From NCBI GenBank assembly GCA_964511175.1, contig CAZEEI010000002.1, positions 66,063-130,062 on the forward strand: a DNA stretch of 64,000 bases, read 5' to 3'. The first letter of the stretch is position 1. Each line of letters opens with the position of its first letter. The stretch comes from an uncultured Pseudomonadales bacterium (GTDB lineage: Bacteria; Patescibacteriota; Microgenomatia; UBA1400; UBA1396). Of the stretch, positions 12,380 through 59,080 are shown one piece after another. The translations under genes were made by a program, and so were the position numbers. Under the pieces are notes generated by a model. That model was not told where the DNA came from and ran no database searches. It was given only the letters and a program-made list of their open reading frames with translations.

Positions 12380-12772
12380 GTGTCTAGTTGGCAGAAATGG
12401 TTTTCTTTTGGACCGGCGGCGGCGTGGTACGCCTTCATTTTTTGGCTTTCCAGCCAGCCCAAACTGCCTGGTCCTGAAAATACTTTAGCGCAATTGTTAT
12501 GGTTTAAAACCGCCCACCTGATTTTTTACGCCATTCTCACTTGTTTATTAATTTGGGCCCTGCGACAGACAATGCACTGGCGAGCCGCCACTTACCGCTG
12601 GTTACTGTTGCTGGCTTTTTGGTTAGTGGTATTCCCGGCTGGACTAGACGAGCTTCACCAGGGTTTAGTGCCGGGGCGCCATATGCGTTGGCGAGACATA
12701 GTAGTTGACGCATCGGCAGCTGCGGCTGTAATCCTGGTATTCTCGCGGTATAATCGCCCTGGTAAGCCTTAA
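12380..12772 (+). CDS. VanZ-like family membrane protein
   Basis: Four TM helices and a conserved C-terminal acidic/Arg region (GRHMRWRDIVVDA), typical of the VanZ-like family. Confidence 0.45.
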   Translation: MSSWQKWFSFGPAAAWYAFIFWLSSQPKLPGPENTLAQLLWFKTAHLIFYAILTCLLIWALRQTMHWRAATYRWLLLLAFWLVVFPAGLDELHQGLVPGRHMRWRDIVVDASAAAAVILVFSRYNRPGKP

Positions 12773-12774
12773 TT

Positions 12775-12852
12775 CGGGATGTAGCTCAGATGGCTTAGAG
12801 CGCACGCATGGGGTGCGTGAGGTCGCTGGTTCGAGTCCAGTCATCCCGACCA
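12775..12852 (+). tRNA. tRNA-Pro (anticodon GGG), 3' CCA encoded
   Basis: Manual cloverleaf: acceptor CGGGATG/CATCCCG, D-arm GCTC..GAGC, anticodon stem CACGC/GCGTG with loop AUGGGGU (U33, anticodon GGG, G37). T-arm GCTGG-TTCGAGT-CCAGT, discriminator A, then CCA. Confidence 0.8.
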
Positions 12853-12991
12853 TAAGCAGCCGTTCAAAAACGGTCACCTGTTTTCTGTGGAATTATAAGA
12901 GAGGTTGTTTTATCAGTAACTATTTTGCAAACTTGGACATACTCTTCTTATCGGTTTAGAATCTACTCAGTACAAAATTAACGGAGGTACG

Positions 12992-13201
12992 ATGTCTGAA
13001 ACTCAACCAAAGGTGTTGAGCGACCAGGACACAACGCGCAATGTCCAATTCTATGACAACCTCATGCCCATGTTGCCTGAAGATGGGGTTACCCGATATT
13101 TAGTCAAAGATGGTGAAAGACACGAGCTTTCTGAGCTCAATAGGGTCGACTGGTTGATTCTCAACGCCCTGTTTCCACAAGGTCCTCAAGTACTGTCCTA
13201 A
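12992..13201 (+). CDS. small hypothetical protein (69 aa)
   Basis: An ORF with GGAGG-like RBS (aacggaggtacgATG). No recognisable motifs. It is the first gene after tRNA-Pro, in an AT-richer block. Confidence 0.3.
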   Translation: MSETQPKVLSDQDTTRNVQFYDNLMPMLPEDGVTRYLVKDGERHELSELNRVDWLILNALFPQGPQVLS

Positions 13202-13237
13202 ACCAATAGCCAACAAATTAGGAAGAAACCATCGACC

Positions 13238-14002
13238 ATGGGTATAAAAATTGTCTGTTTAAACTTATGGAATGGTGGCTTTCTCTTTGAGTCAATGGTG
13301 GAGTACCTACAAAGAGAAAAAGCCGATATTTATTTACTGCAAGAAGTTTTTAATGGGACTGATCCTCATTTACCGCCGCAACATAGGACATTCACCGAGC
13401 TTCAGCAGCAACTTGATTTACCCCACGGACATTTTGCACCATGCTTTAATGAAAATATTAATGGAGCTGTCATTGTTCAAGGTAACGCAATTTTTAGTAG
13501 ATTTCCCCTACAAGAAGTTTCGGTAACGTTCTATGATGTTCCGTTTGGAGCACGCGACAATACCAGAGAAGCATTTCCCTTTTCGCCGCGCAATCTGCAG
13601 CACGTCAAAACCGCAGTTGGTTCTCACGAACTCCATTTATTGAACACACAAGGGATTTGGGGTGAAGATGGTCAGGATTCACCAAGACGCTTGAATATGG
13701 CGACATACATCATACGAGAGATAGATGGTTGTACGCCATTAGTTTTAGCCGGGGATTTCAATGTACAGCCGGAAACTCAAGCCATTGCCTTGATTGAAAG
13801 TAAGCTACACAACGTATTCAAAGGTGAATTGGACACATCATTCAACCTTAAGCGGAAAGATCTGGTTAGGGATCCAGGCTTTACTTCGGCCGTGGTGGAT
13901 ATGTTTTTTATAACTCCTGACTTGAAAGTAACTAAGCAGGTTTGTCCTAAAGTTGACGTATCCGATCACTACCCCTTAGTGGTGGAACTAGACATCGGCT
14001 AG
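13238..14002 (+). CDS. endonuclease/exonuclease/phosphatase (EEP) family protein
   Basis: EEP hallmarks: N-terminal LNLWNGG, catalytic Glu in LLQEV, and C-terminal GDFN...SDHYPLVVELD. No signal peptide is evident. Confidence 0.65.
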   Translation: MGIKIVCLNLWNGGFLFESMVEYLQREKADIYLLQEVFNGTDPHLPPQHRTFTELQQQLDLPHGHFAPCFNENINGAVIVQGNAIFSRFPLQEVSVTFYDVPFGARDNTREAFPFSPRNLQHVKTAVGSHELHLLNTQGIWGEDGQDSPRRLNMATYIIREIDGCTPLVLAGDFNVQPETQAIALIESKLHNVFKGELDTSFNLKRKDLVRDPGFTSAVVDMFFITPDLKVTKQVCPKVDVSDHYPLVVELDIG

Positions 14003-14071
14003 TTTAAGTATCATCCTTGGTTGTGCTATAGTTTTAGATATAGATATAACAAAATATCTAGAAAGGGCGTT

Positions 14072-14398
14072 ATGCCAATAGGTTGGGGTAGAAAAAAAGA
14101 ACACCAAGCAGCAGTTCCAGAAGTTCTTAGTGTCGATGCCCGAGCGCAGGCATTGCTTGATCAGTCAGTGCCTGAGGGACAGCGGTGGTATACAGCCTTT
14201 TTTAAAGTAGTGCTGATAGTTGAGGGCGCCGTACTCAGGGTTGGACCCGTTCCAATTACCGTTCAATCGGTTGAGCTTGATAAGTTAGGCGGTATTATCC
14301 ACACAGTGGATGGTGTTGAGGTGGCTTTTCGTTATGCCGGCGGCGATAAGAGTTTTGTCAAAGTGCATTGTTTGCAAGACCAAAATCGTCAGAGATAG
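14072..14398 (+). CDS. hypothetical protein
   Basis: The ORF track starts at 14021. The internal ATG (MPIGWG) sits downstream of an AGAAAGGG RBS-like stretch. No motifs were recognised. Confidence 0.3.
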   Translation: MPIGWGRKKEHQAAVPEVLSVDARAQALLDQSVPEGQRWYTAFFKVVLIVEGAVLRVGPVPITVQSVELDKLGGIIHTVDGVEVAFRYAGGDKSFVKVHCLQDQNRQR

Positions 14399-14470
14399 CC
14401 AAGATGGGGCTTAGAGCGCCGGGTGTTGTTTTGTATTCATCATTGATACCGAATGATACAATAGGAGCCT

Positions 14471-14851
14471 ATGCCACGAAAAATAGAAGTACCTCAACCC
14501 CTTGACGATTCAATGTCCTTGCCGGATGCCATGCGTGCTTTGGGTTGGTTTGATGCCAGTAAACCGACAATTAATAATTTGTACTCGATTCATCGACATA
14601 TTAACAATCTTTTGAGTTTTATAGATACTTTGCCGGCCAGTGTGGTTACCATCCAAAAATCAATAGATATGCTTTCGGTTTTGGTCATTATTTTGAACAA
14701 ACACTTAAGCTCAATGCCTCCGATTATTAAATCGACAACTATAGAATTAGGTGTTCGCAACAAGATTGAGGAAGCAATTGGGGCTCTTTCCTTTTACCAG
14801 CGCGGTTTTGCGCGGGCGGCTAGTTTATCCGGGGATAAATCGGTAAGATAA
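14471..14851 (+). CDS. hypothetical protein, paralogue A of a duplicated small-protein pair
   Basis: Its N-terminus (PLDDSMSLPDAMRALGWFDASKP) is shared with the ORF at 15720..16091. The stop lies 4 nt before the next ORF. Confidence 0.4.
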   Translation: MPRKIEVPQPLDDSMSLPDAMRALGWFDASKPTINNLYSIHRHINNLLSFIDTLPASVVTIQKSIDMLSVLVIILNKHLSSMPPIIKSTTIELGVRNKIEEAIGALSFYQRGFARAASLSGDKSVR

Positions 14852-14855
14852 AAAA

Positions 14856-15713
14856 ATGTCAACGGAATTGCTGCGTTACCCCGAACATCTCCGTCAATCT
14901 CTAAAATTAGATGGACTAGAACTTGCCAATTTTAATTTTTCGTTAGGATTGAGAGAAATTTTGCAAAAACGCGGTATCAGCGCCCTACCCTTGATTTATT
15001 TGGGTGCCGGCGGCGATTGGTGGACAGCAGCGCTGATTTCGGGCTCATCGCATCTTGTTTTAGTTGATTCGCATCCGTTTTTGAGCAAAGGAGACGTTGA
15101 AGACGGACTTTTTGCCAGTCTAGACGAATTGTTTAGGGCGGTTAATCCAGAGCGTGAACGTTTGGGTGCCACGCGGGCAGGGAAAGATGTGCAACCGGCT
15201 GTGCAGATGGTGGCTAATTTATTCAGGATCGGCATCGGTCGAAATAATATTCGTATCACTACCAATGACGGCCGGGATGCTCGCGTCAAAATTAAACTAG
15301 GTAAGCAGGAAATGCGGGTAGATTTTTGTTCCCGAATCGTTAAGAGTGCGGCTGAGCTTGGGATTCTACTGCATGATCAGGATATCGATGGCGAATACGG
15401 CATAATGGCTAAGGGGGGAGCCGACCGCGCTTTAACCACGATTATTAATCAATTAAGTCAGCAACCCGATTTTCAACCCCTCTATTTTGTGGTGGATGAC
15501 CCGCGATCCATGGCAGGAAAAACTTTGACGGTGGCCGAAGAGGCAAAGTTGTTTTCGGGATATGATTTGCAGGAGAGGAAGTCTGATCAAGAAACTGGCT
15601 GGGGTTATTCCTGGAATGAAGAACCGGGTGGCCAGGCTGGACCGGCAGCCAATGAGTTTGATTACCGTACGCGGGCTGTGGTGGGGATTCGCCGGCCTAA
15701 TTTACCTTACTAA
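14856..15713 (+). CDS. hypothetical protein (285 aa), possible Rossmann-like fold
   Basis: LIYLGAGGDWWTAALISGSSHLVLVDSHP resembles a Gly-rich nucleotide-binding loop followed by an acidic beta2 end. No secure family assignment is possible. Confidence 0.35.
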   Translation: MSTELLRYPEHLRQSLKLDGLELANFNFSLGLREILQKRGISALPLIYLGAGGDWWTAALISGSSHLVLVDSHPFLSKGDVEDGLFASLDELFRAVNPERERLGATRAGKDVQPAVQMVANLFRIGIGRNNIRITTNDGRDARVKIKLGKQEMRVDFCSRIVKSAAELGILLHDQDIDGEYGIMAKGGADRALTTIINQLSQQPDFQPLYFVVDDPRSMAGKTLTVAEEAKLFSGYDLQERKSDQETGWGYSWNEEPGGQAGPAANEFDYRTRAVVGIRRPNLPY

Positions 15714-15719
15714 GCTAGT

Positions 15720-16091
15720 GTGATATTCTCGGCAATAGTTATGGCTACAAAAGAAGGATATTTACCTATTGATCGATCTATGTCGCTAGAGACGGCTTTG
15801 TCCGTGCTTGGCTTGTTTGATTCAAAACAAGGGTTGTTCGTGGTTGATGCCACCATGGAAGCACTAATCGAGCAAACGAGTCGATTTTTGCGTGCTAGAA
15901 CAACTGATTTGGCTCGACTGCATATTGATGATCTTTATGTATTAAGGGACATTTTGAGTCGAACAAAAGGGGAAGAAAAGCGAAGCGCACCAGAGTTGGC
16001 TCATATCCGGGATGCCTATATCACCGTTAACACTTATCTTCGGGGTTTAGTCGATGGCCGCTTGTTTCAGAGCAAAGAGATGGTGCGCTAG
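15720..16091 (+). CDS. hypothetical protein, paralogue B of the duplicated small-protein pair
   Basis: Its N-terminus (LPIDRSMSLETALSVLGLFDSKQG) matches paralogue A, and the C-terminal two-thirds diverge. It ends 5 nt before the convergent gdh stop. Confidence 0.4.
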   Translation: MIFSAIVMATKEGYLPIDRSMSLETALSVLGLFDSKQGLFVVDATMEALIEQTSRFLRARTTDLARLHIDDLYVLRDILSRTKGEEKRSAPELAHIRDAYITVNTYLRGLVDGRLFQSKEMVR

Positions 16092-16096
16092 AAGCT

Positions 16097-17365
16097 CTAA
16101 GCCACGCCCCGCAATAGCATCGCCTCAATAACGCGTTTCACGCCCAAAACATATGCCGCCTGTCGGTAGGAAAGTGAACGTTGCTCTGCCAGCTGGGCAA
16201 TCGCCTGCCAGGCGGTGAGTTGATGTTCCTGCAGTTCGGTTTGCACGCGCTCCAGTGTCCAACGGTAGCCATGCAGGTTTTGCACCCACTCAAAATAACT
16301 AACTGTGACACCACCAGCGTTACAGAGCACGTCAGGAAGCACGTCAATATGACGTTTTTGTAGCGCCTCATCTGCTTCTGGTGTGGTGGGTCCGTTAGCC
16401 ATTTCTAAGATGGTTTTGGCTTGAATCTGCTCCACATTATCAGCATGAATAGTGTTTTCCAACGCCGCCGGCACCAGGATGTCGACCGGTAGAGCCAATA
16501 ATTTTTGGTTGGTGATATATTCCCAGCCCAATTCTTGTGCCGCTTTTTCCAGAGAGCCGAGCCGCTGTTTGGCCTCAATCGCCATGGTGGGGTTAAGGCC
16601 AGTGGCGAGGTAAACGGCGCCGCGGGAATCAGAGAGAGCTACAATTTTGAAACCGCGCTGGTAGGCAAACTCAGCAAACCAGGAACCAACGTTACCCATG
16701 CCTTGGATCGCTACACTGGTTGAACTTGGTTCGAGCTTTTTTGATCGCGCGTAGGCTTCTAGGATATGAACACCACCTTGGCCGGTAGCCTCAGTGCGGC
16801 CCAGTGAACCACCAAGCTCAATAGGTTTGCCAGTAAATGTGGCTGGAGCCAACTGGCCAATAGTTTTTTCGTAAGCATCCAGCATCCAGGCCATAATTTG
16901 ACCATTAGTGTTAACATCTGGGGCAGGTACATCTTGCCATGGCCCGATATGAGGTGCCAACCATTGAGCGTAGGCCTGAGCCAAACGCTGGAGTTCAGTG
17001 CGGGACAAAGTATGAGGATCAACCGCAATTCCTCCTTTAGAGCCACCAAAGGGAATGTCGGCAATGGCGCACTTCCAGGTCATCCACATGGAAAGGGCTT
17101 GTACTTCTTCCACCGATACTTGAGGGTGAAAACGTAAACCACCTTTATACGGGCCGCGGGCCGCGTTATGTTGGCTGCGGTAAGCTGGGAAAGTAGCAGT
17201 TTCACCATTATCCAGTTTGATGGTTAATTGCTCCGACCAAAGGTGTTCTGGTTTTTGTAAAAGAGCAACAGCCTGACGGAATCGTTCCTGGTCGGCAAAC
17301 TCACTCGCCAGAAGAGGGACGATAGCGCTAAGCTGCTGTTGGGCGACAGCGAGCGGCGAATCCAT
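16097..17365 (-). CDS. gdhA: Glu/Leu/Phe/Val-family glutamate dehydrogenase
   Basis: Catalytic Lys motif GGSKGGIAVDP, Rossmann motif GMGNVG, and a length (422 aa) typical of GdhA. Confidence 0.85.
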   Translation of the reverse strand: MDSPLAVAQQQLSAIVPLLASEFADQERFRQAVALLQKPEHLWSEQLTIKLDNGETATFPAYRSQHNAARGPYKGGLRFHPQVSVEEVQALSMWMTWKCAIADIPFGGSKGGIAVDPHTLSRTELQRLAQAYAQWLAPHIGPWQDVPAPDVNTNGQIMAWMLDAYEKTIGQLAPATFTGKPIELGGSLGRTEATGQGGVHILEAYARSKKLEPSSTSVAIQGMGNVGSWFAEFAYQRGFKIVALSDSRGAVYLATGLNPTMAIEAKQRLGSLEKAAQELGWEYITNQKLLALPVDILVPAALENTIHADNVEQIQAKTILEMANGPTTPEADEALQKRHIDVLPDVLCNAGGVTVSYFEWVQNLHGYRWTLERVQTELQEHQLTAWQAIAQLAEQRSLSYRQAAYVLGVKRVIEAMLLRGVA

Positions 17366-17410: not shown

Positions 17411-18451
17411 GTGTTAACAAACGACTTAACTTTAATCGATGCGGCTTGGTGGGTGGGCGGGAACCGACGCCGTGGTATCGGTAAATACTTGGCTTATTTC
17501 TTTGAATATGTCTTTCCAGTTAAAGCGGCGGCGCGGGTTTGGTTGTTTCCGGCGACGGTTCCCGCCCGCGAGATAGCTGACTTTACGGCGCGTTTTGGCG
17601 GTAAAGCTGAGATTATCAACACTGCTGATTCGGCCGAACAACAGGCTCAGTGGCTCACTGAACTAATCGAACGTTATTCAGTTAAACGAGTTCTATTTAG
17701 CTCGCCGTTTGAGCGGCCTTGGTCATTGCTAGACCACGTCCCACTATTTATTGCCCACAAAATCCCTACACAGGCGATTGTTTTTGATCTTTTGCCGCTA
17801 CAGTTTACCAAAGAAATCTTGGCCACTTGGCCTCTAGCCGAACAGAAGATCTACCGCACGCGCGCCAGTCACTTGCGGTTGCTAGACGCCTATTGGGCCA
17901 TCTCACCCCAAACTGCCCATTCTCTGGAACGTTTGCTGGCGGTGGCAGCGGACCGAATTCAAATTTTGAAGTTTGGTTTAACGACTGCTTGGTTAAAGCC
18001 GCCGCCCCGCGGTACACCGCCAACCTGGCCGCATCCGGAAAAAAAAGCTGCTTTAACTATTTCCGGCGGTGAGTGGCGCAAAAATTTAGCCGGAACTTTA
18101 GCCTATTTTGCCCGCAAACTAATGAACAGCCACGATTTAGCGATTATCTGCCGTCTAAGTTTACGCGAACATTTTCGTTTGCGCCGGCAGACTTTGCAGT
18201 CGGATTCTTATAACGCCGTACGTTTTTTGGGCGAAGTAAACGAGCGGGACAAATGGCGCTACTTGTACAGTACTGATATCTTTCTGTTTTTGTCTTTAGC
18301 CGAAGGTTTGGGGATTCCATTACTAGAGGCGCGCGCCGCTGGTGTGCCTCGTGTGATCATTAGTCAGGAATTATATGACCAGGGATTTCACAAACTAGTA
18401 CCAGGTTGTGAGGTGGTAAAAACTACACCAACTCGCGGATCAATTGGTTAA
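17411..18451 (+). CDS. GT4-family (GT-B) glycosyltransferase-like protein, divergent
   Basis: N-terminal G.GKY motif (GIGKYL) and the C-terminal GT4 E-x7-E region (LAEGLGIPLLEARAAGVPRVI). The core is divergent. Confidence 0.4.
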   Translation: MLTNDLTLIDAAWWVGGNRRRGIGKYLAYFFEYVFPVKAAARVWLFPATVPAREIADFTARFGGKAEIINTADSAEQQAQWLTELIERYSVKRVLFSSPFERPWSLLDHVPLFIAHKIPTQAIVFDLLPLQFTKEILATWPLAEQKIYRTRASHLRLLDAYWAISPQTAHSLERLLAVAADRIQILKFGLTTAWLKPPPRGTPPTWPHPEKKAALTISGGEWRKNLAGTLAYFARKLMNSHDLAIICRLSLREHFRLRRQTLQSDSYNAVRFLGEVNERDKWRYLYSTDIFLFLSLAEGLGIPLLEARAAGVPRVIISQELYDQGFHKLVPGCEVVKTTPTRGSIG

Positions 18452-30399: not shown

Positions 30400-31644
30400 A
30401 TGAGGGTTGGCAAAGCAAGCACGGGCGAATCAGGATTAGGTAGAACTCAATTATTAACCGAAAAGCTTAAGCCGCAAAAAGAAAGAAAAATCCGCTGGTT
30501 CCGTTGGTGGAAAATTCTTTTAGGTTTAATTTTAGTAGGAGTGGTGACGGCGCCCAGCGGGAGTGAAAAAGTTTCCGCATTTGATCCGAATAATCAAGAG
30601 ATTCCAAGCGGGTGGGGGCTAGCCAGCTTGCTTGTTGACGCTGTCCGACAAGAGGCAGAAGCCGAAGCCAAAAAAATTGAAGATACCCTGGCCAGTGAGG
30701 TTGGAGAACGGGTTAATCCCTACTACCAACCCTACAGCGAAATAATGGCGCAGGGAATAGAAGAGTTTAAAGCGGCCCACCCAGATATACCAGTGGTCTG
30801 GCATAAATCTGAACAATATTTTGATGATACCGATCTGATCCGCATACTACTGACACCAATTACCGCAGAGGAGGTTTGGACTGACGAGGATGTTGGTACA
30901 TTACCAATCAAATATTTAGCCTCAGCAGCCACTAATAGTAGTACTGAAGACATGTCTAAACTTTCCTTGTTGATAAAGCATCGTTTACCTCCAGAAATAC
31001 TTGAGACTATTTTGCTTGCCGAGAGTCAAATACCAGTTGTCCCGGGGACTGATTTATATAACCAAGCAGGCGATCTTTATGACGAGAGTAGTTGGCAGCT
31101 TTTTGAGACATACTACAACGAAATTAAGCAAGATTTAGAAACAATATATCAAGAGAGAGGTGGTGGGGAGCCATTGTCCCAGTCTGCGGTCTTAGCTTAT
31201 TTTTTGGACAAATATAACGGTGATCTCAATGCTGCCCTGAGCGATTTATCCGGATTTATGAAGCAAATGAGATTCCAAATTAATTGGTTGCGAAAATATA
31301 TTCAGGATCAACATAATCCCTATTTTTCCCTCAATGATTTACCTCCTTTTGGTGAAACTACGGATTTTCCGGGCAAACATTTTGCCCAAAGTGATTTACT
31401 ACTCTATGACACAATGCCTGGGGAACAGCAGGATTGGGCCACCAGTATTTGGGGTCTGAGCTATCACTCACCATATATGGTAAAGCTTTTGTCGGACTCT
31501 TCGCCAGAAGTAATTAAATTGTTTTGTCTCTACGAATACATAAACTATGATCATGTAGCCGAGCCATACAAAGAAATTTATGATTTTCTTATGCTGGACG
31601 AACTTTACGAGATACTCGCCCTGCTTGAGTCCTATAGTCGATAG
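30400..31644 (+). CDS. hypothetical membrane-anchored protein (414 aa)
   Basis: A basic cytoplasmic N-terminus, one TM helix (WKILLGLILVGVVTA) and an approx. 350-aa acidic ectodomain with no recognised motif. It sits in an AT-richer segment. Confidence 0.4.
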   Translation: MRVGKASTGESGLGRTQLLTEKLKPQKERKIRWFRWWKILLGLILVGVVTAPSGSEKVSAFDPNNQEIPSGWGLASLLVDAVRQEAEAEAKKIEDTLASEVGERVNPYYQPYSEIMAQGIEEFKAAHPDIPVVWHKSEQYFDDTDLIRILLTPITAEEVWTDEDVGTLPIKYLASAATNSSTEDMSKLSLLIKHRLPPEILETILLAESQIPVVPGTDLYNQAGDLYDESSWQLFETYYNEIKQDLETIYQERGGGEPLSQSAVLAYFLDKYNGDLNAALSDLSGFMKQMRFQINWLRKYIQDQHNPYFSLNDLPPFGETTDFPGKHFAQSDLLLYDTMPGEQQDWATSIWGLSYHSPYMVKLLSDSSPEVIKLFCLYEYINYDHVAEPYKEIYDFLMLDELYEILALLESYSR

Positions 31645-31731
31645 GTATTCCTGTAAAAGGGATGAAGTTGTATAGGGATATAGACCAATACCGAGAATTG
31701 TAATAGGATGAATGTATTGTAAGGGAGTGTT

Positions 31732-33819
31732 ATGCCAGAAAAAAATGGGCCTGATTTTGATAATCCAGGAATGACACCACAGCTCTATGAGGGTCCGGTT
31801 GCCTATACTCTGGATACACAAAAGCATTCGGTGAAAATTGGTGCTACAGATCTGGATTCTATAGAAACTACGCGCATAACTAATGAATCTTCTCCAGAAA
31901 GCCAGCAAGCCTTTGTCGAACAACGTCAGCATATGGCTGAGATGGAAAATGCCATGATGGATGCATCAGTGCTTATTACTGCAGAGGGTGTGGATCCGGC
32001 AGTTAAAGCTGAATTGCGAGCCTATCTACAGTCAATTGGGAAAAGCATTCAAACACTTGTTGCCAAGATGCCAAAGTTGAAAGAAACATATGCCTATATT
32101 TTTAAGGCACAAAAGAGACAGCTCGAACCGCACAGACCATCGCTTACAGTTGCCCCGGAAGTGGTTTTACCCGTAGATTTGGCAAGGGAAGCCAAACAAC
32201 ATGTCCAGGATTTTCTGTTTGGGGGCGAGGGGTCTTCTGGCACGCCGCGCATTAACATTAAAGAGAATACCACTACACAAAAACTGGAGATAAGTTCCTA
32301 TCGGTATATTCCTGATCCCGGCGGAAATCCTCATTTAGATAGAGAAGAGGTTGTTCCTCTCGGATGGAGAGGTAATGTTGATTGGCAACCAGATAGCGGG
32401 GTGCGACGCAAATATCCCGATCTAGACAAGCTTTGTTTAGCTTTAAAACCGATTCTAGAGAGAGAAGTAGCCAGTATTTTGCCGAGTTTATCAACAGAGC
32501 CCTTGGCCAAGGCAACTAGGGCAAAAATTGAAGCCTGTTGTGCCAATAAAACGGCTAATGTTTTGTATACCCTTGATAGTGCCTTTGACTCCAAGAGTTT
32601 GGTGACCGATATATCCCTAGAGGGGCCGGACAAATCAGGCATAGTAGAGGCTGTGATGTTGCGACGGGAACAAGGGGTAGGAAAAAAGAAAGCCGACCGT
32701 TTACATTTGCCTGAAACGGCTTATCTAGATAGAAAACGAGTTGAGCCTCAAGATCTGTCTGACCCCCAACTACGAGCTGATTTGAGTGATCTACACGGTT
32801 CGGGCGTGTCAGAGGCTGAGTTGATGGGGTTATATGCTCCTCTGCCTGATTATGCACTACGAGCGTTGGAAGGCTTGCTGGACGACGAGGGGAATGTGGT
32901 GAGTTTGGTGTCGCGTGATCAGATTATGGCGCTGTTTGATGTTTCATCAGGAGCTCCACATCAGTCGAAAAATACTTTGTTAGACCAAATAAGTAAAGAT
33001 GTGGCCGATATTGTCATCCTAAAAGAAAAAAGGAAACATCAAGCTGATGTTGATTTAAAATCTACGCTTGATCGGCAACAAAACGGTTTATATCAGGAGA
33101 TTAGGAGTTTTCTGGCTAAATTAAATCCGCCCGCTTCTCGACTAGAGGATGTAGTGGCGCGAAAAGGAAGACTTGGCTTAGGTGGCGTAACCAATCAAGC
33201 CGATGTCGAAGCCAGGGAAGATTTTGAACGCCGCCAGACTGAATTGAGCGAACAGCAACGAGTGGTTAGTGAAAGGTTGAAGGCCTATAAGCCACAGACT
33301 GTTTATGGTTCGCAGGATGAGGGACAAGTTATGGCAGGGATTCAGAGACAGCTTGATCGTGCTGTCACGCTTACCTACAAAGCGGGGTCCTTACCAATCA
33401 TTTTGGACCAAGATTTATTTAAGGGTGTGACATCGGAACCGATGGAAACTTTAGTTGACCGATTACGGGAAAAACTTGATCAGCAAGCACAAAAGATAGC
33501 GTCGACCGTAGCGGCTGAAACGGCAGCGACGATAGATAAATTGACACAGGACTTTGCCAGAACTAAGGCTCTTTTAGAAAGAGTGATGGAAACCCCGGAT
33601 CAATCAAGGATGCAGGAGGCTGTTTTAGCCTATATTCAGGGAAGAATGTACAATTTTTCAGATGATCGGTTGTCTATGTATAAACCTGAGCAAAGAATCT
33701 TCTATTATGCTGGCCAAAGAAGCCGGGCAACGGCGGCGAGGTGGTCTGTTTCGTCGGTTCCTGAGAATATCCGAGAGAGAGTGCGGCTTTTTGATGTTTT
33801 GCCTCAAGATGCGGTATAG
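31732..33819 (+). CDS. large hypothetical protein (695 aa)
   Basis: A long uninterrupted ORF with an RBS-like GGGAG upstream. No TM segments or motifs were recognised. The composition is similar to the preceding ORF. Confidence 0.45.
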   Translation: MPEKNGPDFDNPGMTPQLYEGPVAYTLDTQKHSVKIGATDLDSIETTRITNESSPESQQAFVEQRQHMAEMENAMMDASVLITAEGVDPAVKAELRAYLQSIGKSIQTLVAKMPKLKETYAYIFKAQKRQLEPHRPSLTVAPEVVLPVDLAREAKQHVQDFLFGGEGSSGTPRINIKENTTTQKLEISSYRYIPDPGGNPHLDREEVVPLGWRGNVDWQPDSGVRRKYPDLDKLCLALKPILEREVASILPSLSTEPLAKATRAKIEACCANKTANVLYTLDSAFDSKSLVTDISLEGPDKSGIVEAVMLRREQGVGKKKADRLHLPETAYLDRKRVEPQDLSDPQLRADLSDLHGSGVSEAELMGLYAPLPDYALRALEGLLDDEGNVVSLVSRDQIMALFDVSSGAPHQSKNTLLDQISKDVADIVILKEKRKHQADVDLKSTLDRQQNGLYQEIRSFLAKLNPPASRLEDVVARKGRLGLGGVTNQADVEAREDFERRQTELSEQQRVVSERLKAYKPQTVYGSQDEGQVMAGIQRQLDRAVTLTYKAGSLPIILDQDLFKGVTSEPMETLVDRLREKLDQQAQKIASTVAAETAATIDKLTQDFARTKALLERVMETPDQSRMQEAVLAYIQGRMYNFSDDRLSMYKPEQRIFYYAGQRSRATAARWSVSSVPENIRERVRLFDVLPQDAV

Positions 33820-54493: not shown

Positions 54494-55075
54494 TTAAGGT
54501 CGAAAAAGTTTCCGTAACTTAGTTAATTCGGTTTTATTTTTGCTGAGCCGCAAAATCTGTAATGCTATGTCCCAGTCGCGGAAATTTTCTTGAGTTGTTA
54601 AGTCGACAAATTGGTCAAAGGTAAACTCCAGGAGCTTAATTTTTTCACCCACATCAAGTGATGGTGGTTGTATCTGCCGACAGCCTTTGGCGATAAAGTT
54701 ATAAATAGCCCAGTCGATTTTTTCCAGTGGCTGTTCGGCTTGCCAGAGAATCCAGTGGTCGGCAACCATCCCGGCTTCTTCCAAGAGTTCGCGCTGGGCA
54801 GCGGCCAAGGGAGTTTCCTGGGGATCCAGGCGTCCGCCCAAAGTGCCAATGAATGGTTCAACACCCGGCTGGCTTTGTTCGGATAAAATTAGCCGACCAT
54901 CATCGGTGATGGGAATGACACCAACCGTATCGGTACGTCTTACCTTTTCAAAGATGGCCTTACTGCCGTCGAACATAGTTTGTTCCCACTGGTAGATGGT
55001 AAAGACCTGGCCGCTAAACACTTTTTTAGCGTGATTCGGGATAGGTTGACGGGAAAGAGGGCGTTTAAGATCCAT
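54494..55075 (-). CDS. NUDIX hydrolase
   Basis: Nudix box GGRLDPQETPLAAAQRELLEEAGM. Confidence 0.65.
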   Translation of the reverse strand: MDLKRPLSRQPIPNHAKKVFSGQVFTIYQWEQTMFDGSKAIFEKVRRTDTVGVIPITDDGRLILSEQSQPGVEPFIGTLGGRLDPQETPLAAAQRELLEEAGMVADHWILWQAEQPLEKIDWAIYNFIAKGCRQIQPPSLDVGEKIKLLEFTFDQFVDLTTQENFRDWDIALQILRLSKNKTELTKLRKLFRP

Positions 55076-55089
55076 AGTGTTTATTTTTT

Positions 55090-55581
55090 TTAAATCTTTT
55101 TATAAAGTGAGTACTGCCGGGTAACGAATCCGGTTTTTTGGTAAAAATCTAAACCCTGACGATTAAAAGACGAACACTGCAAGCTAATATAATTCAAGCC
55201 CAGATTGCGCAAGAAAGTTTCCACCTCAGTCATTAGTTTTTGGCCGACACCCCTGCGGCGATAATTAGGGCTGACGTATAGCTCAATAACCTCGCCGTAT
55301 TTAGTAATATTGGTGTCAAAATAATGGTCGGTGACTTTTTTGAAAGTGACAAAGCCAATCAGTTTGCTACCGCTTTCGGCTAATAAAACGTAAGGATCAC
55401 TCTTAGTAATGGCTTTTTTGAGATACTGTGTGAACTTCCGATTCAATTGTGGGGAACTGGGCACATAGTAAACCGGATCGAGGTCGTAGTGGTAATCGCA
55501 TTGACCCTGCCAGAGAGTAAGCAAATCCGGTAAATCACTAAGGCTGGGTTTCCTAATATTGATTTTATAGTCGCGGCTCAT
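55090..55581 (-). CDS. GNAT-family N-acetyltransferase
   Basis: Acetyl-CoA motif A RRRGVGQKLM (R/Q-x-x-G-x-G/A) and GNAT-size length of 163 aa. Confidence 0.7.
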   Translation of the reverse strand: MSRDYKINIRKPSLSDLPDLLTLWQGQCDYHYDLDPVYYVPSSPQLNRKFTQYLKKAITKSDPYVLLAESGSKLIGFVTFKKVTDHYFDTNITKYGEVIELYVSPNYRRRGVGQKLMTEVETFLRNLGLNYISLQCSSFNRQGLDFYQKTGFVTRQYSLYKKI

Positions 55582-55583
55582 AG

Positions 55584-55904
55584 TTATTTGGTGAGTTTGG
55601 CCAAATATTCTCTACCCAGGAAAAGCCCGCCGATAACCATCAAGAGAACAGATAAAATCATTGATTCCCAACGAGAGAAAATCAACAGCAACAATCCCAC
55701 AGCGATAAAAACCAATCCTCCCAAGCGTTCGTATTTCCAGGCAAGAGCGGTCAACAGAGCCAAGATGAAATTGGGGATTAAGTGCATTAATAAAGCGATG
55801 GGCCATTGGGGTTGATCAAAAACATCCAGGGCGAATAAAGCGAGGAAGGCATTAAATAAGATTGCTAGGACGCGGGGGAGGTAGTAGAGAGTTTTTTTGA
55901 GCAT
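55584..55904 (-). CDS. small hypothetical membrane protein (3 TM)
   Basis: A hydrophobic 106-aa ORF with no motifs. Confidence 0.3.
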   Translation of the reverse strand: MLKKTLYYLPRVLAILFNAFLALFALDVFDQPQWPIALLMHLIPNFILALLTALAWKYERLGGLVFIAVGLLLLIFSRWESMILSVLLMVIGGLFLGREYLAKLTK

Positions 55905-55938
55905 GATTCCATTCTACCACTTGGGAAAAATTAACAAG

Positions 55939-56682
55939 TTAGGATGACTTTCTGGTTATCTTTATCCATTTTCCAGCAGGCTCCACTTTTTCTATCATTG
56001 CAAAGGCTTTAGAACCAATTTTATCAGCCATTCTTTGAAGATCATTTGGCTTGCAGCTGATATATAAAACACCACCAGGTTTCGCTAGCATAAGTTGTGC
56101 CTCAAGAGTTTCATCACTAGGTCCAAAAGCATTGACAATAACATCTCCGGTTCCATTTAGGTTCGCAAAATCATCTTTACCGATAAGACCGGTTTGCATA
56201 CTCAATTCTTCCTCTTTTCGCATCGAAGCTTCTACTAACGTCTGGATACGTTCTCTTTGTTTACCGATGTCAAAAGTATCGGTAAATCCCATTTTATTAA
56301 GCTGTGACTCAATGGATTTTAAATCTTCCAGTAACAATTCAAGGTTTACCTGATCGATAATGACTTTAGTATTAGGGGAATGCCCTCTTTCCCTTTGTTT
56401 TTGCGATATTTCTAGTGGAACTAAACTTGAACCATTGCCTAAAAATATTGTTGTTCCACGATTGTCAGTTATATCTTGTACAACCTGATCGCCAAATTCA
56501 TGACCAAACATTTCAAGAGTTCTTGCTGTGATGCCGCTACCCATACTAAAAGCATCAAGTTCATGTTGCGGTCTCAAGGATAATCCATCTAATTCGATAC
56601 CGCTTTTCATGGGGGTATTCAAAGCTATTTGTTGAAGAGCTTCAGAAATTGCGTAGATATCTTTAGGTTGTTCGTCTGACAT
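55939..56682 (-). CDS. hypothetical protein, possible SAM-MTase-like Rossmann fold
   Basis: TIFLGNGSS and DVIVNAFGP...LAKPGGVLYI resemble methyltransferase motifs I and post-III. This is weak. Confidence 0.3.
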   Translation of the reverse strand: MSDEQPKDIYAISEALQQIALNTPMKSGIELDGLSLRPQHELDAFSMGSGITARTLEMFGHEFGDQVVQDITDNRGTTIFLGNGSSLVPLEISQKQRERGHSPNTKVIIDQVNLELLLEDLKSIESQLNKMGFTDTFDIGKQRERIQTLVEASMRKEEELSMQTGLIGKDDFANLNGTGDVIVNAFGPSDETLEAQLMLAKPGGVLYISCKPNDLQRMADKIGSKAFAMIEKVEPAGKWIKITRKSS

Positions 56683-56689
56683 AAATATC

Positions 56690-56968
56690 CTATTTTGAGT
56701 TCGATTGCCGCGCTTTATTTAATAATTCCGGGATAAAGTACATAGCCAGTCCAGTTGTTGCCATAATTATCAGGGCAACCGAAAACAAAACACTCATTTC
56801 CCGATGAATATATCTAATCAACCCTAGATCAATGTTAACGATTTCTCCTAAATTAGGATATTTTAGCAACATTCCCGTACTACCCATTATCAAAGTAAGT
56901 AAAACGGTAACCAGCAGGCTCCAACGGTGGATTTTTTTCGATAATAGAAACAATTGTGATAGGGACAT
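56690..56968 (-). CDS. small 2-TM membrane protein with His residues in both helices
   Basis: A 92-aa ORF with a TM helix after KIHRW and a second after IRYIHREM. It lies directly downstream of the cyt-b5-like gene. Confidence 0.3.
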   Translation of the reverse strand: MSLSQLFLLSKKIHRWSLLVTVLLTLIMGSTGMLLKYPNLGEIVNIDLGLIRYIHREMSVLFSVALIIMATTGLAMYFIPELLNKARQSNSK

Positions 56969-56969
56969 A

Positions 56970-57356
56970 TTATTTTAAGGTTCCTAGATAGTAGTTGGTT
57001 AATAATTCGCGGGCGGTGTTGGAATGAACCCGACCTTTCTTAATGGAGTTGTAGGCTTGGGTGGCATCTTGGCCGCAAAATTGAATAATATTTGCGCCCC
57101 CGGGGTGCTGATCAATAAAGCTGGTTAGGTTATACACCTTGCCCTCAATGGCCTGCCAGCAATCTGTGGGAGAACTATGCTGCTGCAGTTCGGCTAATGA
57201 ATGGGTAGTAGCTGTACTGAGGGGTAAAGATGAGGTCTGGATACCGCTTTGGTTATTAATCGATCGGGCGTTGCCGGGATAGTGCTGCACGACCAAAATC
57301 AAAAAAACCAGGGCAAACACACATAAAACGCTGCCGATGATGATCTCTTTCTTCAT
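56970..57356 (-). CDS. membrane-anchored cytochrome b5-like heme-binding domain protein
   Basis: An N-terminal TM anchor. The C-terminal domain carries the b5 HPGG motif (FIDQHPGGANIIQFCGQDATQAY) and an upstream WxAIxGKVYN pattern. Confidence 0.55.
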   Translation of the reverse strand: MKKEIIIGSVLCVFALVFLILVVQHYPGNARSINNQSGIQTSSLPLSTATTHSLAELQQHSSPTDCWQAIEGKVYNLTSFIDQHPGGANIIQFCGQDATQAYNSIKKGRVHSNTARELLTNYYLGTLK

Positions 57357-57387
57357 ACCTACTTAAAAGTATACTATACAGAGCCGA

Positions 57388-57636
57388 ATGCGGCGCCGGG
57401 CCTGTATCCTTGTGTTATACTTGGCTGATATGAGCCGAAAAAAGGAATTATTAAGCGAAGGCGACGCAGATTCAGTTGTTTCCGAAGCGGAAATAAACAG
57501 GGAAATTCGAGAACATTTGGAAAGACATGGATGTGGGGAAACTTTTATTGCTACAGAGTATCGCCGATGGCGATTAGCGGGATATTCTCAACAACAACTC
57601 GAAGAAGATTACGATATGTGTCATATCTGGAGATGA
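57388..57636 (+). CDS. small hypothetical protein (82 aa)
   Basis: An ORF in an AT-rich segment with no motifs. Confidence 0.25.
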   Translation: MRRRACILVLYLADMSRKKELLSEGDADSVVSEAEINREIREHLERHGCGETFIATEYRRWRLAGYSQQQLEEDYDMCHIWR

Positions 57637-57667
57637 TTTTAGAAGGAGATGTTAGGCCATAGCTTTT

Positions 57668-58015
57668 TTACAGTAAGCCACCTTTAAGTAACCTGAATTC
57701 TTTTTTGCTTTCCCAAAGCTTCTGCAACTCTTCAAAATTGGCGTCTGGATCAAGCATGAGTTTTGCTAGCTCATCAATTTGCTTGGCATCTTGTTCGTTA
57801 ATTGGTTGTTGGGCATCAAATAGGCTCTTAGTCTTTGCGCTCCCATCTTGGCGAATGCGTCCAATATAATAACAAACACCAACCAATTTTTGTGATCGAG
57901 AAAGTAACTGAACAAATTTGGTGAAGTTAAGTAGAAGAAGTTTTTGGAGCTTGAGATCCTTAAGCTTGAAGTAAAAACTACTACCATCTATGAGAACAAG
58001 ACATCGTTCACTCAT
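57668..58015 (-). CDS. hypothetical protein, weak NYN/LabA-like N-terminus
   Basis: CLVLIDGSSFYF resembles the first strand and acidic residue of NYN-domain nucleases. The ORF is short for that fold. Confidence 0.25.
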   Translation of the reverse strand: MSERCLVLIDGSSFYFKLKDLKLQKLLLLNFTKFVQLLSRSQKLVGVCYYIGRIRQDGSAKTKSLFDAQQPINEQDAKQIDELAKLMLDPDANFEELQKLWESKKEFRLLKGGLL

Positions 58016-58331
58016 TTACCAATACTACCAAATAAAAGGCGAAAATAAAGCCCTGCAAATGTCTTTCGACCTCACAGGGCGGTTTAGTGTTCACATACTA
58101 TCAAATTGATCTGGGAAAGTCAACCAATCATCTGGTTTCGCTTGGATAGAATCCAAATCTAGTTTGATTGATCAGGTAATTTATCCTTTTTTGATTTTCA
58201 GTACACTCTGGAGCTGGGGACGGTACTCAGCTCGAACCTGCCACTACCATCATGGCTTTTTCTCAACTTGTATCGTCTTATAACTCCTGAACTGATTTTA
58301 CAACTTGCCACGTTAAAAGATCATTTAGGAA

Positions 58332-58952
58332 TTAAATCTTTTGCCAACCAACTCTAATTGACCACTTTTCAAAAGACTTTTGTCTCTCAAGTCTATCTTT
58401 TGGCGGTTTTTCATTACTTTCTTCAACAAGTTTTCTCTGTTTTGTTATCGTTTCGGATAATGGAGGCAATCCCATTCCTTTTCTAAGAATGTCTACTTTT
58501 TCAGGATTTTCAATCGGATTAGGCGACATTTGGTTATTTTCATCCCAATCAAATTGAGTACCGTAGATTTGCTTTTTTCCTTCAAAAATTCTGATTCTAT
58601 CTTCTAACATAGCTATTTGGTCTAGCGGAACCTCACCTTTGTTTGCTTGGACCTTCAGTATTTTCAGACAATTTCTCTGCAGTTCAGGCAAACTAATGGC
58701 ATGTTGGGCAATAAGCCAAGCATTTCTTGCACCAGTTTCACCAACTAAACTTTTCCCTGGCCAGCCATACTGATTAATAATTTCCAAAAGTCTTTCACCG
58801 TTTCTGTTGTGAACTTTTTCCATTTCAGGGTGATACCCCTCAAACAAACTTCCATCTTTTGCAAGTTCGTCACGTAATCGATAGTCCTCATCTATCATTT
58901 TTTGAAGTTCAAACGAGATAGTTTTCCAATTAGAATCGTAAGGAGTTGTCAT
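58332..58952 (-). CDS. hypothetical protein (206 aa)
   Basis: A clean ORF with a Lys/Glu-rich C-terminus and no motif recognised. Confidence 0.35.
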   Translation of the reverse strand: MTTPYDSNWKTISFELQKMIDEDYRLRDELAKDGSLFEGYHPEMEKVHNRNGERLLEIINQYGWPGKSLVGETGARNAWLIAQHAISLPELQRNCLKILKVQANKGEVPLDQIAMLEDRIRIFEGKKQIYGTQFDWDENNQMSPNPIENPEKVDILRKGMGLPPLSETITKQRKLVEESNEKPPKDRLERQKSFEKWSIRVGWQKI

Positions 58953-59009
58953 TTATTGTATTCTTATGTAATTTCCTAGTAACTTTGCGGTTATTTCTGT
59001 CACTTTATG

Positions 59010-59080
59010 AGCGGGTGAAGGGAATCGGACCCTCGTATTCTGCTTGGAAGGCAGACGCTCTACCACTGAGCTACACCCGC
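59010..59080 (-). tRNA. tRNA-Gly (anticodon TCC), no encoded CCA
   Basis: The minus-strand cloverleaf has acceptor GCGGGTG/CACCCGC and D-arm GCTC-AGTGGTA-GAGC. The anticodon stem is TCTGC/GCAGA with loop CUUCCAA. There is a 4-nt variable loop, T-arm GAGGG-TCCGATT-CCCTT and discriminator U. Confidence 0.8.

Follow-up and report, generated by a model that had tools for sequence, protein, structure and literature searches.

A small integrase-free variable islet 3' of tRNA-Pro(GGG) in a Woesebacteria-like genome, probably a mosaic of independently distributed genes

We examined a 64,000-nt stretch of contig CAZEEI010000002.1 (referred to here as the window), which comes from a poorly sampled Woesebacteria-like lineage of the Patescibacteria (candidate phyla radiation). 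Within it, the 3.2-kb interval between the 3' end of a tRNA-Pro(GGG) gene and the stop codon of gdh (called the islet) had been described by a model reading the letters (the original prediction) as an AT-rich island of horizontally acquired DNA. The island was said to carry a cytoplasmic endonuclease/exonuclease/phosphatase (EEP) nuclease and to resemble a toxin/immunity or anti-phage module. Gene calling confirmed the layout: six co-oriented open reading frames (ORFs) on the plus strand occupy 12992-16091, and the convergent gdh, a glutamate dehydrogenase gene recognised by its PF02812 and PF00208 domains, ends at 16097, 5 nt past the ORF6 stop (Table 1). The intergenic gaps are short, and the gap of 4 nt between ORF4 and ORF5 suggests translational coupling. 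The two small proteins expected at 69 and about 109 aa were called at 69 aa (ORF1) and 108 aa (ORF3). As had been predicted, no housekeeping annotation was found for any of the six; the EEP domain was the only Pfam or NCBIfam match among them.

When GTDB species representatives, which do not include the source genome itself, were scanned with gdh, the closest genome, and the sole reasonably close comparator, was a Candidatus Woesebacteria metagenome-assembled genome (L003). Its left flank carries, in the same order as the window, RF2, a 226-aa gene, FtsE, FtsX, a coiled-coil peptidase, an LTD-like protein, VanZ and tRNA-Pro(GGG). Its right flank likewise carries gdh, a glycosyltransferase, YqeY and an epimerase. 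The flank proteins of the two genomes are 44-80% identical. The tRNA-Pro gene is 100% identical between them, and the alignment collapses right past its last base; the other end of the homology is exactly the gdh stop. In between, L003 has 4.2 kb with six ORFs, encoded on both strands and 92-486 aa long. Not one gave a tblastn match to the six genes of the window or a Pfam match. It may be noted that CCA is encoded at the end of the window tRNA-Pro gene (12850-12852), and that the otherwise identical L003 gene is without it.

The 3' 50 nt of the tRNA was then used as a query against metagenome contigs, and four more loci (L092-L095) were obtained. The upstream block was as in the window in all four, and a VanZ-like gene lies directly 5' of tRNA-Pro in L003, L092, L094 and L095. 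The L094 contig ends at the tRNA, so that four of the five related contigs (L003, L092, L093 and L095) retain sequence on its 3' side. In L092 and L093, a single gene for a VTT-domain (DedA-type) membrane protein follows the tRNA, and the glycosyltransferase-YqeY-epimerase block comes directly after it, without gdh. L095 carries different small ORFs 3' of the tRNA. At least four occupancy states (window, L003, L092/L093, L095) were thus seen at one conserved site. The flanks are conserved and the content between them differs among relatives, which bears out the prediction that the interval is not core DNA; the same six genes are not found in all relatives, nor is the interval free of compositional deviation (see below).

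Table 1. Features of the tRNA-Pro islet and its borders (window positions)
Feature	Coordinates	Strand	Remarks
VanZ-like membrane protein gene	12380..12772	+	Pfam VanZ, E = 3.8e-8; conserved left anchor
tRNA-Pro(GGG)	12775..12852	+	ARAGORN; Rfam tRNA, 59 bits; left boundary of variable interval
Terminator-like hairpin (12859-12874) and T-rich tail, just 3' of the tRNA	12859..12884	+	Consensus match only
Sigma-70-like promoter candidate, TGGACA-17-TAGAAT, 10/12	12934..12962	+	Consensus match only; upstream of ORF1
ORF1, 69 aa, orphan	12992..13201	+	
ORF2, 254 aa, cytoplasmic EEP-superfamily putative metal-dependent phosphodiesterase or nuclease	13238..14002	+	
ORF3, 108 aa, orphan	14072..14398	+	
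ORF4, 126 aa, orphan helical protein (predicted), N-terminal motif in common with ORF6	14471..14851	+	
ORF5, 285 aa, divergent class I (Rossmann-like) methyltransferase-fold protein (predicted), rare family	14856..15713	+	
ORF6, 116 aa (123 aa from GTG 15720), orphan helical protein (predicted), related to ORF4 via N-terminal motif	15741..16091	+	
gdh, Glu/Leu/Phe/Val dehydrogenase, convergent	16097..17365	-	PF02812 and PF00208; right boundary of youngest layer
Glycosyltransferase gene	17411..18451	+	Pfam Glycos_transf_1; conserved right anchor (glycosyltransferase-YqeY-epimerase block), syntenic in L003, L092 and L093

The likely reading, in our view, is that of a plasticity zone: a small variable islet without an integrase, flanking tRNA-Pro(GGG) on its 3' side, whose content is a mosaic of independently distributed gene units rather than one functional system. 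The units would be ORF1, the EEP hydrolase, ORF3, and ORF4-ORF5-ORF6. Their independence is suggested by the varied neighbours of EEP homologues and by ORF5 homologues that stand without ORF4 or ORF6, both described below. No two of the six genes co-occur elsewhere in the contigs examined. Genes may have been gained and lost at this site by homologous recombination, with the conserved flanks serving as anchors, since the window and L003, at only ~70% protein identity, have the same tRNA sequence. Alternatively, the genes may stem from older site-specific insertions whose integrase and attachment (att) scars have since been lost.

The gdh gene was found at the site only in the window and in L003, where the two proteins are 71% identical; the next best relatives are 44-52% identical. 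These other relatives are spread over Woesearchaeota, Nanoarchaeia, Gracilibacteria, Thermoplasmatota, Acidobacteria and others. In view of these scattered relatives and of its absence from the site in L092 and L093, gdh itself is probably an older acquired accessory layer, which would have been gained before the window lineage and L003 split. Hence, the variable zone is best drawn from 12853 to ~17410, up to the start of the glycosyltransferase gene at 17411. The limits originally proposed, from the tRNA to the gdh stop, hold for the youngest layer; as the right boundary of the whole zone, the gdh stop is probably too narrow.

The base composition of the islet was compared with that of its surroundings. 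The GC content is 44.4% in the interval, 3.8 points below the 48.2% of the window, and ~52% (51-52%) in the immediate flanks. Against all stretches of the same length in the window, the interval gave z = -1.6, with 7.7% of them as low or lower; those as GC-poor all lie within ~30-34 kb and 53.5-60 kb. The strand-symmetric tetranucleotide distance was unremarkable (z = +1.0). The five ORFs that reach 100 codons (ORF2-ORF6) have a GC content of 0.38-0.45 at third codon positions, compared with 0.474 +/- 0.065 for 63 crude gene calls. ORF5 (48.4%), ORF3 (48.0%) and ORF1 (47.1%) are essentially at the genome average, and the low ones are ORF2 and ORF4. A similar drop from flank to interval was observed in L003 (51-53% to 47.5%) and L095 (46.3% to 42.1%), so that the cargo lies ~4 GC points under the flanks in three genomes; the single VTT-domain gene of L092 showed no drop. 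The islet is therefore more AT-rich than its flanks, as had been claimed, but it is no statistical outlier, two other stretches of the window being more extreme.

The stronger of these two (55000-59010, minus-strand genes) lies immediately 3' of tRNA-Gly(TCC) (59009-59080, minus strand). Its genes, of 37-47% GC, encode a GNAT acetyltransferase, DUF7670, a cytochrome b5-like protein, DUF6624 and two proteins without a Pfam match. It is a better compositional island candidate than the tRNA-Pro islet. The other low-GC patch (30400-33819, 41-46%) holds two large plus-strand ORFs of 414 and 695 aa without a Pfam match.

Several points weigh against the mosaic reading. The mechanism of turnover or transfer is one that we infer only. 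The compositional deviation is weak, and weakly constrained orphan genes, rather than foreign origin, could be its source. The comparators are few and distant (the nearest has ~71% amino acid identity in conserved proteins), and they neither tell gains from losses nor date them. No empty site, with gdh directly after tRNA-Pro, was found among the relatives examined. All ten proteins tested, including those of flanking core genes, are singletons at 90% identity; the lineage is thus poorly sampled, which inflates apparent orphan status, and that status is to be read cautiously. Moreover, one operon, its common function invisible to homology searches, would likewise account for the tight packing and co-orientation.

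Some of these points bear on a reading with no horizontal transfer at all, in which the islet genes are ancestral, weakly constrained and lineage-specific, their lower GC reflects relaxed selection or low expression, and the differences between genomes arose through differential loss and divergence beyond recognition. In the window and in L003 alike, orphan genes without Pfam matches do fill the interval; the composition shift is small, the ORF5 family evolves fast (32% identity between the homologues in L114 and L116, see below), and the whole lineage is poorly sampled. However, gene number, sizes and orientations are wholly different between the intervals (six plus-strand genes in the window; mixed strands and a 486-aa gene in L003). 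The EEP protein evolves slowly and would be recognisable if orthologous, yet it is missing from the L003 interval, and L092 and L093 have neither gdh nor any of the cargo at the site. We regard this explanation as quite unlikely.

The junction with the tRNA was examined for signatures of mobility. As the original prediction had noted, an integrase is lacking; Pfam and NCBIfam searches with the six proteins gave no integrase domain. The reported lack of a direct repeat of the tRNA 3' end also held when the search was extended to the whole window, where no copy was present at up to 3 mismatches in 25 nt. Blastn-short at word size 7 likewise gave no tRNA-end repeat, only chance-level matches of 7-12 nt to the D-arm. 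One of these, the 12-nt GGCTTAGAGCGC in the ORF3-ORF4 spacer (14408-14419, within 14402-14419; E = 0.017), and an 11-nt one where ORF6 meets gdh (16094-16104, opposite strand), were considered and taken as chance; neither is oriented as att scars would be. In L003, only tRNA matches of 8-9 nt in a different orientation were seen, and these too were taken as chance. No other notable repeats were found in the region.

As a positive control for the canonical att signature, a 22-nt T-arm/acceptor sequence was scanned in IMG/VR. In four contigs, tRNA-Pro(GGG) was represented only by a 3' fragment of ~44 nt that reaches back to the anticodon loop, and no tRNA was called (L099 9144-9165, L100 10359-10380, L111 3068-3089 and L096 2042-2063). 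A tyrosine integrase lies immediately beside the fragment in three of the four (L099, L100 and L111). In L104 and L113 (159-234), a full tRNA-Pro(GGG) is followed by an integrase. These are canonical att sites, and the 3' 38 nt of their tRNA is almost identical to that of the window.

Such sites bear on the possibility that the islet is a decayed integrative element (a prophage or island) that entered at the tRNA-Pro 3' end through a tyrosine recombinase and then lost its integrase, its distal att site and most of its genes. The DNA without homology does set in right at the tRNA 3' end, with co-oriented genes and a slightly raised AT content, and a tRNA-Pro(GGG) with the same 3' end is a real integration target elsewhere (L099, L100, L111, L104 and L113). 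Against this, the islet has no integrase, excisionase or phage-like gene, and the window has no partial tRNA copy. What the islet contains is a mosaic of typical candidate-phyla-radiation genes rather than mobile-element genes. In addition, the integrases of the viral contigs have the Arm-DNA-bind_5/Phage_int_SAM_5 architecture, and their tRNAs differ in the anticodon loop, indicating other hosts. A decayed element is therefore unlikely. Like known tRNA-linked genomic islands, the islet starts right where a tRNA gene ends, differs in content among relatives with conserved flanks, and is somewhat AT-richer than its surroundings. Unlike them, it has no integrase, tRNA-end direct repeat, mobility genes or phage genes, it is only 3.2 kb long, and its compositional shift is modest. 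Hence, its turnover is not canonical site-specific integration, or the traces of that process are gone. The "classic signature" of acquired DNA that had been claimed here is incomplete: the islet does lie beside the tRNA, its shift in composition is no more than modest, and integrase and att repeat are lacking.

The EEP-domain assignment of ORF2 was solid at the sequence level. The protein matched Pfam Exo_endo_phos (PF03372) at 52.5 bits (cut-off 24.5) over residues 9-244, and the catalytic residues N9, E36, D173, N175, D243 and H244 were invariant across 37 homologues. Mean column identity across the aligned Patescibacteria homologues was 44%. Since the catalytic Asn is residue 9, there is no room for an N-terminal signal sequence, in agreement with the predicted cytoplasmic location. 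No member of the family that was examined has a leader peptide, and the longer homologues owe their length to internal insertions. At E <= 1e-3, 198 homologues were found, most of ~250 aa and 40-71% identical; those with a named source all come from Patescibacteria, Woesebacteria or Parcubacteria. In IMG/VR, the family had no viral relatives.

ORF2 resembles the EEP superfamily (ExoIII/APE1, DNase I, TDP2, sphingomyelinase/beta-hemolysin) in its full-length Pfam match over ~250 aa and in keeping all canonical catalytic and metal-binding residues. It differs in forming a separate family, whose source-named members are all from Patescibacteria and lack signal peptides, and in matching any characterised member at 1e-4 or worse. 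The best PDB match of the family profile was 3g6s, an uncharacterised Bacteroides EEP structure (2e-9); sphingomyelinase/beta-hemolysin, TDP2 and ExoIII followed at 1e-4 to 1e-2. Since the latter three matches are marginal and the nearest characterised structures are split among them, the family could not be placed in any one of the nuclease, lipid-phosphodiesterase and phosphatase branches. Of the label "EEP nuclease" the superfamily stands, and the nuclease role is not established.

The surroundings of ORF2 homologues were also compared. Homologues at 69-71% identity stand in unrelated contexts, beside KsgA, NUDIX, or PLD/HTH/AAA_13 genes. None of the neighbours is related to ORF1 or ORF3 in the contigs examined, and, apart from one near-identical pair (L083 and L086), they are also unrelated to one another. 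In that pair, which comes from sister samples of one Joint Genome Institute (JGI) project, a module of a 97-aa gene and the EEP gene (L083 4978-7197, L086 7587-9187) is shared at 94% nucleotide identity. The two contigs differ upstream of the module, and KsgA follows the EEP gene only in L083. There too, the EEP gene is at the edge of strain-variable DNA. The 97-aa gene was considered as a conserved EEP partner and rejected; it is identical in L083 and L086, yet unrelated to ORF1.

These contexts bear on the reading as a toxin/immunity or anti-phage module, in which the EEP protein would be the effector nuclease, the small neighbours would be antitoxin, immunity or sensor proteins, and ORF5 might be a protective methyltransferase. 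In its favour, the EEP protein is cytoplasmic with intact catalytic residues, and it lies in a variable, slightly AT-rich region among small uncharacterised neighbours, with a methyltransferase-fold gene in the same gene string. Moreover, the homologue in L086 stands beside PLD, AAA_13, ResIII and HTH genes in what looks like a defence island. The searches did not bear it out. PADLOC (PADLOC-DB v2) gave zero matches for the six proteins, even at E <= 1, and PHROGs gave no significant match (best E = 0.098). The EEP gene is conserved across Patescibacteria as a single gene for ~250 aa with no recurrent partner, its neighbours being KsgA, NUDIX or the unrelated 97-aa protein. Homologues of ORF5 were never found alongside an EEP homologue or a homologue of ORF4 or ORF6; ORF5 has no Pfam or PDB match to DNA methyltransferases, and two other genes separate it from ORF2. 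We hold a defence module to be very unlikely. Two specific forms of it were rejected: a toxin-antitoxin or toxin-immunity pair, as no conserved small partner adjoins the EEP homologues, and a restriction-modification system of EEP protein and methyltransferase, as homologues of ORF2 and ORF5 never occur together in the contigs examined and no DNA-methyltransferase profile matches.

For ORF5, a word-indexed search returned only the protein itself. When 1.84 billion representatives were searched exhaustively with HMMER, 12 relatives came up; IMG/VR gave no viral ones. The family alignment shows the motifs PL(I/V)Y(I/L)GSGGD, (I/L)(I/L)(I/V)D..PF and Y(F/I)V.DDPR. In the GSGG segment, G50 and G52 are invariant and S51 and G53 nearly so, and LVD70 follows strand beta-2. 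No Pfam, NCBIfam or PDB profile matched, those of DNA methyltransferases included. When ORF5 was aligned with a KsgA by hhalign, residues 47-72 fell on motif I and strand beta-2 of KsgA, and the match was not significant (E = 0.16). With Pfam, PDB and hhalign all non-significant, only structure prediction was informative. The AlphaFold2 model, built from a 12-sequence alignment, is of high confidence (predicted local distance difference test score, pLDDT, 86.9; predicted template modelling score, pTM, 0.87) and has the features of a Rossmann-like methyltransferase fold. From this model we conclude that ORF5 is predicted to have a methyltransferase fold with a plausible S-adenosylmethionine (SAM) site.

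The likeness to class I SAM-dependent methyltransferases (KsgA/Erm, catechol O-methyltransferase) lies in the glycine-rich motif I (YIGSGGD) after strand beta-1 and in the acidic residue (LVD) that closes strand beta-2. ORF5 differs from them in having no sequence-level match in Pfam, NCBIfam or PDB and in its long insertions at ~residues 72-160. It also has a conserved DDPR where the amino-methyltransferases have (D/N)PP(Y/F). A weak local similarity was also seen between ORF5 residues 21-53 (14916-15014) and gdh (16310-16408), with 45% identity over 33 aa (E = 0.05). The motif I region thus resembles the dinucleotide-binding region of gdh, both the neighbouring one and those in other loci. 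This would fit a Rossmann-type beta-alpha-beta element common to both proteins rather than homology between the genes.

ORF5 homologues were found in five other contexts, with no homologue of ORF4, ORF6 or the EEP gene alongside. Two homologues (one on L114 1-1345, the other on L116 650-3199 and L117) lie within the S10 operon, where the order is rpsJ, a gene for an 87-aa membrane protein, the ORF5 homologue and rplC. Between L114 and L116 the flanks share 75-80% nucleotide identity, yet the ORF5 homologues are only 32% identical as proteins, which indicates that the family evolves fast. It is unusual for the rpsJ-rplC junction to hold an additional, fast-evolving gene of this predicted methyltransferase fold.

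ORF4 and ORF6, which are of similar length, share a 22-residue motif, P(L/I)D.SMSL..A...LG.FD, near their N-termini (BLASTP E = 2e-5). A shuffle test gave z = 6.5, with the score reached in none of 2000 shuffles. The similarity is wholly N-terminal, the remainders giving z = 0.1. ORF4 is predicted, with moderate confidence (pLDDT 70), to form three long helices, and the fold matches are generic helical bundles. Neither protein has a homologue besides the other among 5.8 billion proteins, and the ORF4-ORF5-ORF6 arrangement is unique to this genome. That two small proteins with a common motif flank ORF5 hints at a local functional link, for example as adaptors or regulators.

A bolder reading of these three genes would make them a new kind of translation-directed modification cassette. 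In it, the ORF5 family would be a rapidly diversifying methyltransferase, found only in genomes of the candidate-phyla-radiation type, that acts on the ribosome or a ribosomal protein; ORF4 and ORF6 would be its adaptors or regulators, and the cassette would move through hotspots such as the tRNA-Pro flank. The location in the S10 operon (rpsJ-rplC) in another clade, a predicted fold closest to the KsgA/Erm rRNA methyltransferases, and homologues only 32% identical within syntenic flanks are all compatible with it. We give this reading little credence.

ORF1 and ORF3 have no significant family match (Pfam, PADLOC, NCBIfam, PHROGs) and no counterpart in any related locus examined. The candidate promoter is the best promoter-like site of the region and is sensibly placed, 30 nt 5' of the ORF1 start region, and GGAGG lies 5 nt 5' of the ORF1 ATG. 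ORF1-ORF6 are probably transcribed rightward from this candidate promoter of their own, near 12.95 kb. Promoter-like sites in the region are no more numerous than in shuffled sequence, and the count of terminator-like sites is not above shuffle expectation. An Rfam scan of 12.5-16.4 kb found tRNA-Pro as the sole non-coding RNA. The same gene calls, with identical proteins, were obtained on two public contigs. In public assemblies of the same organism, L001 begins at ~12823 of the window, inside tRNA-Pro, and the 3.2-kb L002 covers ~13110-16316, essentially the islet alone. These breaks at the islet borders could reflect strain heterogeneity, or simply low coverage.

Most likely, then, the islet is one more example of a well-known feature, an ordinary gene-turnover hotspot filled with lineage-specific genes. 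The result is mostly a clean negative: what had been taken for an AT-rich, tRNA-side island with a nuclease turned out to be such a hotspot, and it should not be propagated as a defence system. Two minor leads came out of the analysis. One is a conserved, uncharacterised family of cytoplasmic EEP proteins that is widespread in Patescibacteria. The other is a very rare, fast-evolving family with a predicted methyltransferase fold, located in the S10 operon of some organisms, which could merit biochemistry. More generally, the 3' flanks of tRNA-Pro(GGG) appear to be plasticity zones in Woesebacteria-like genomes even without integrases, and this bears on how genes are exchanged in the reduced genomes of the candidate phyla radiation.

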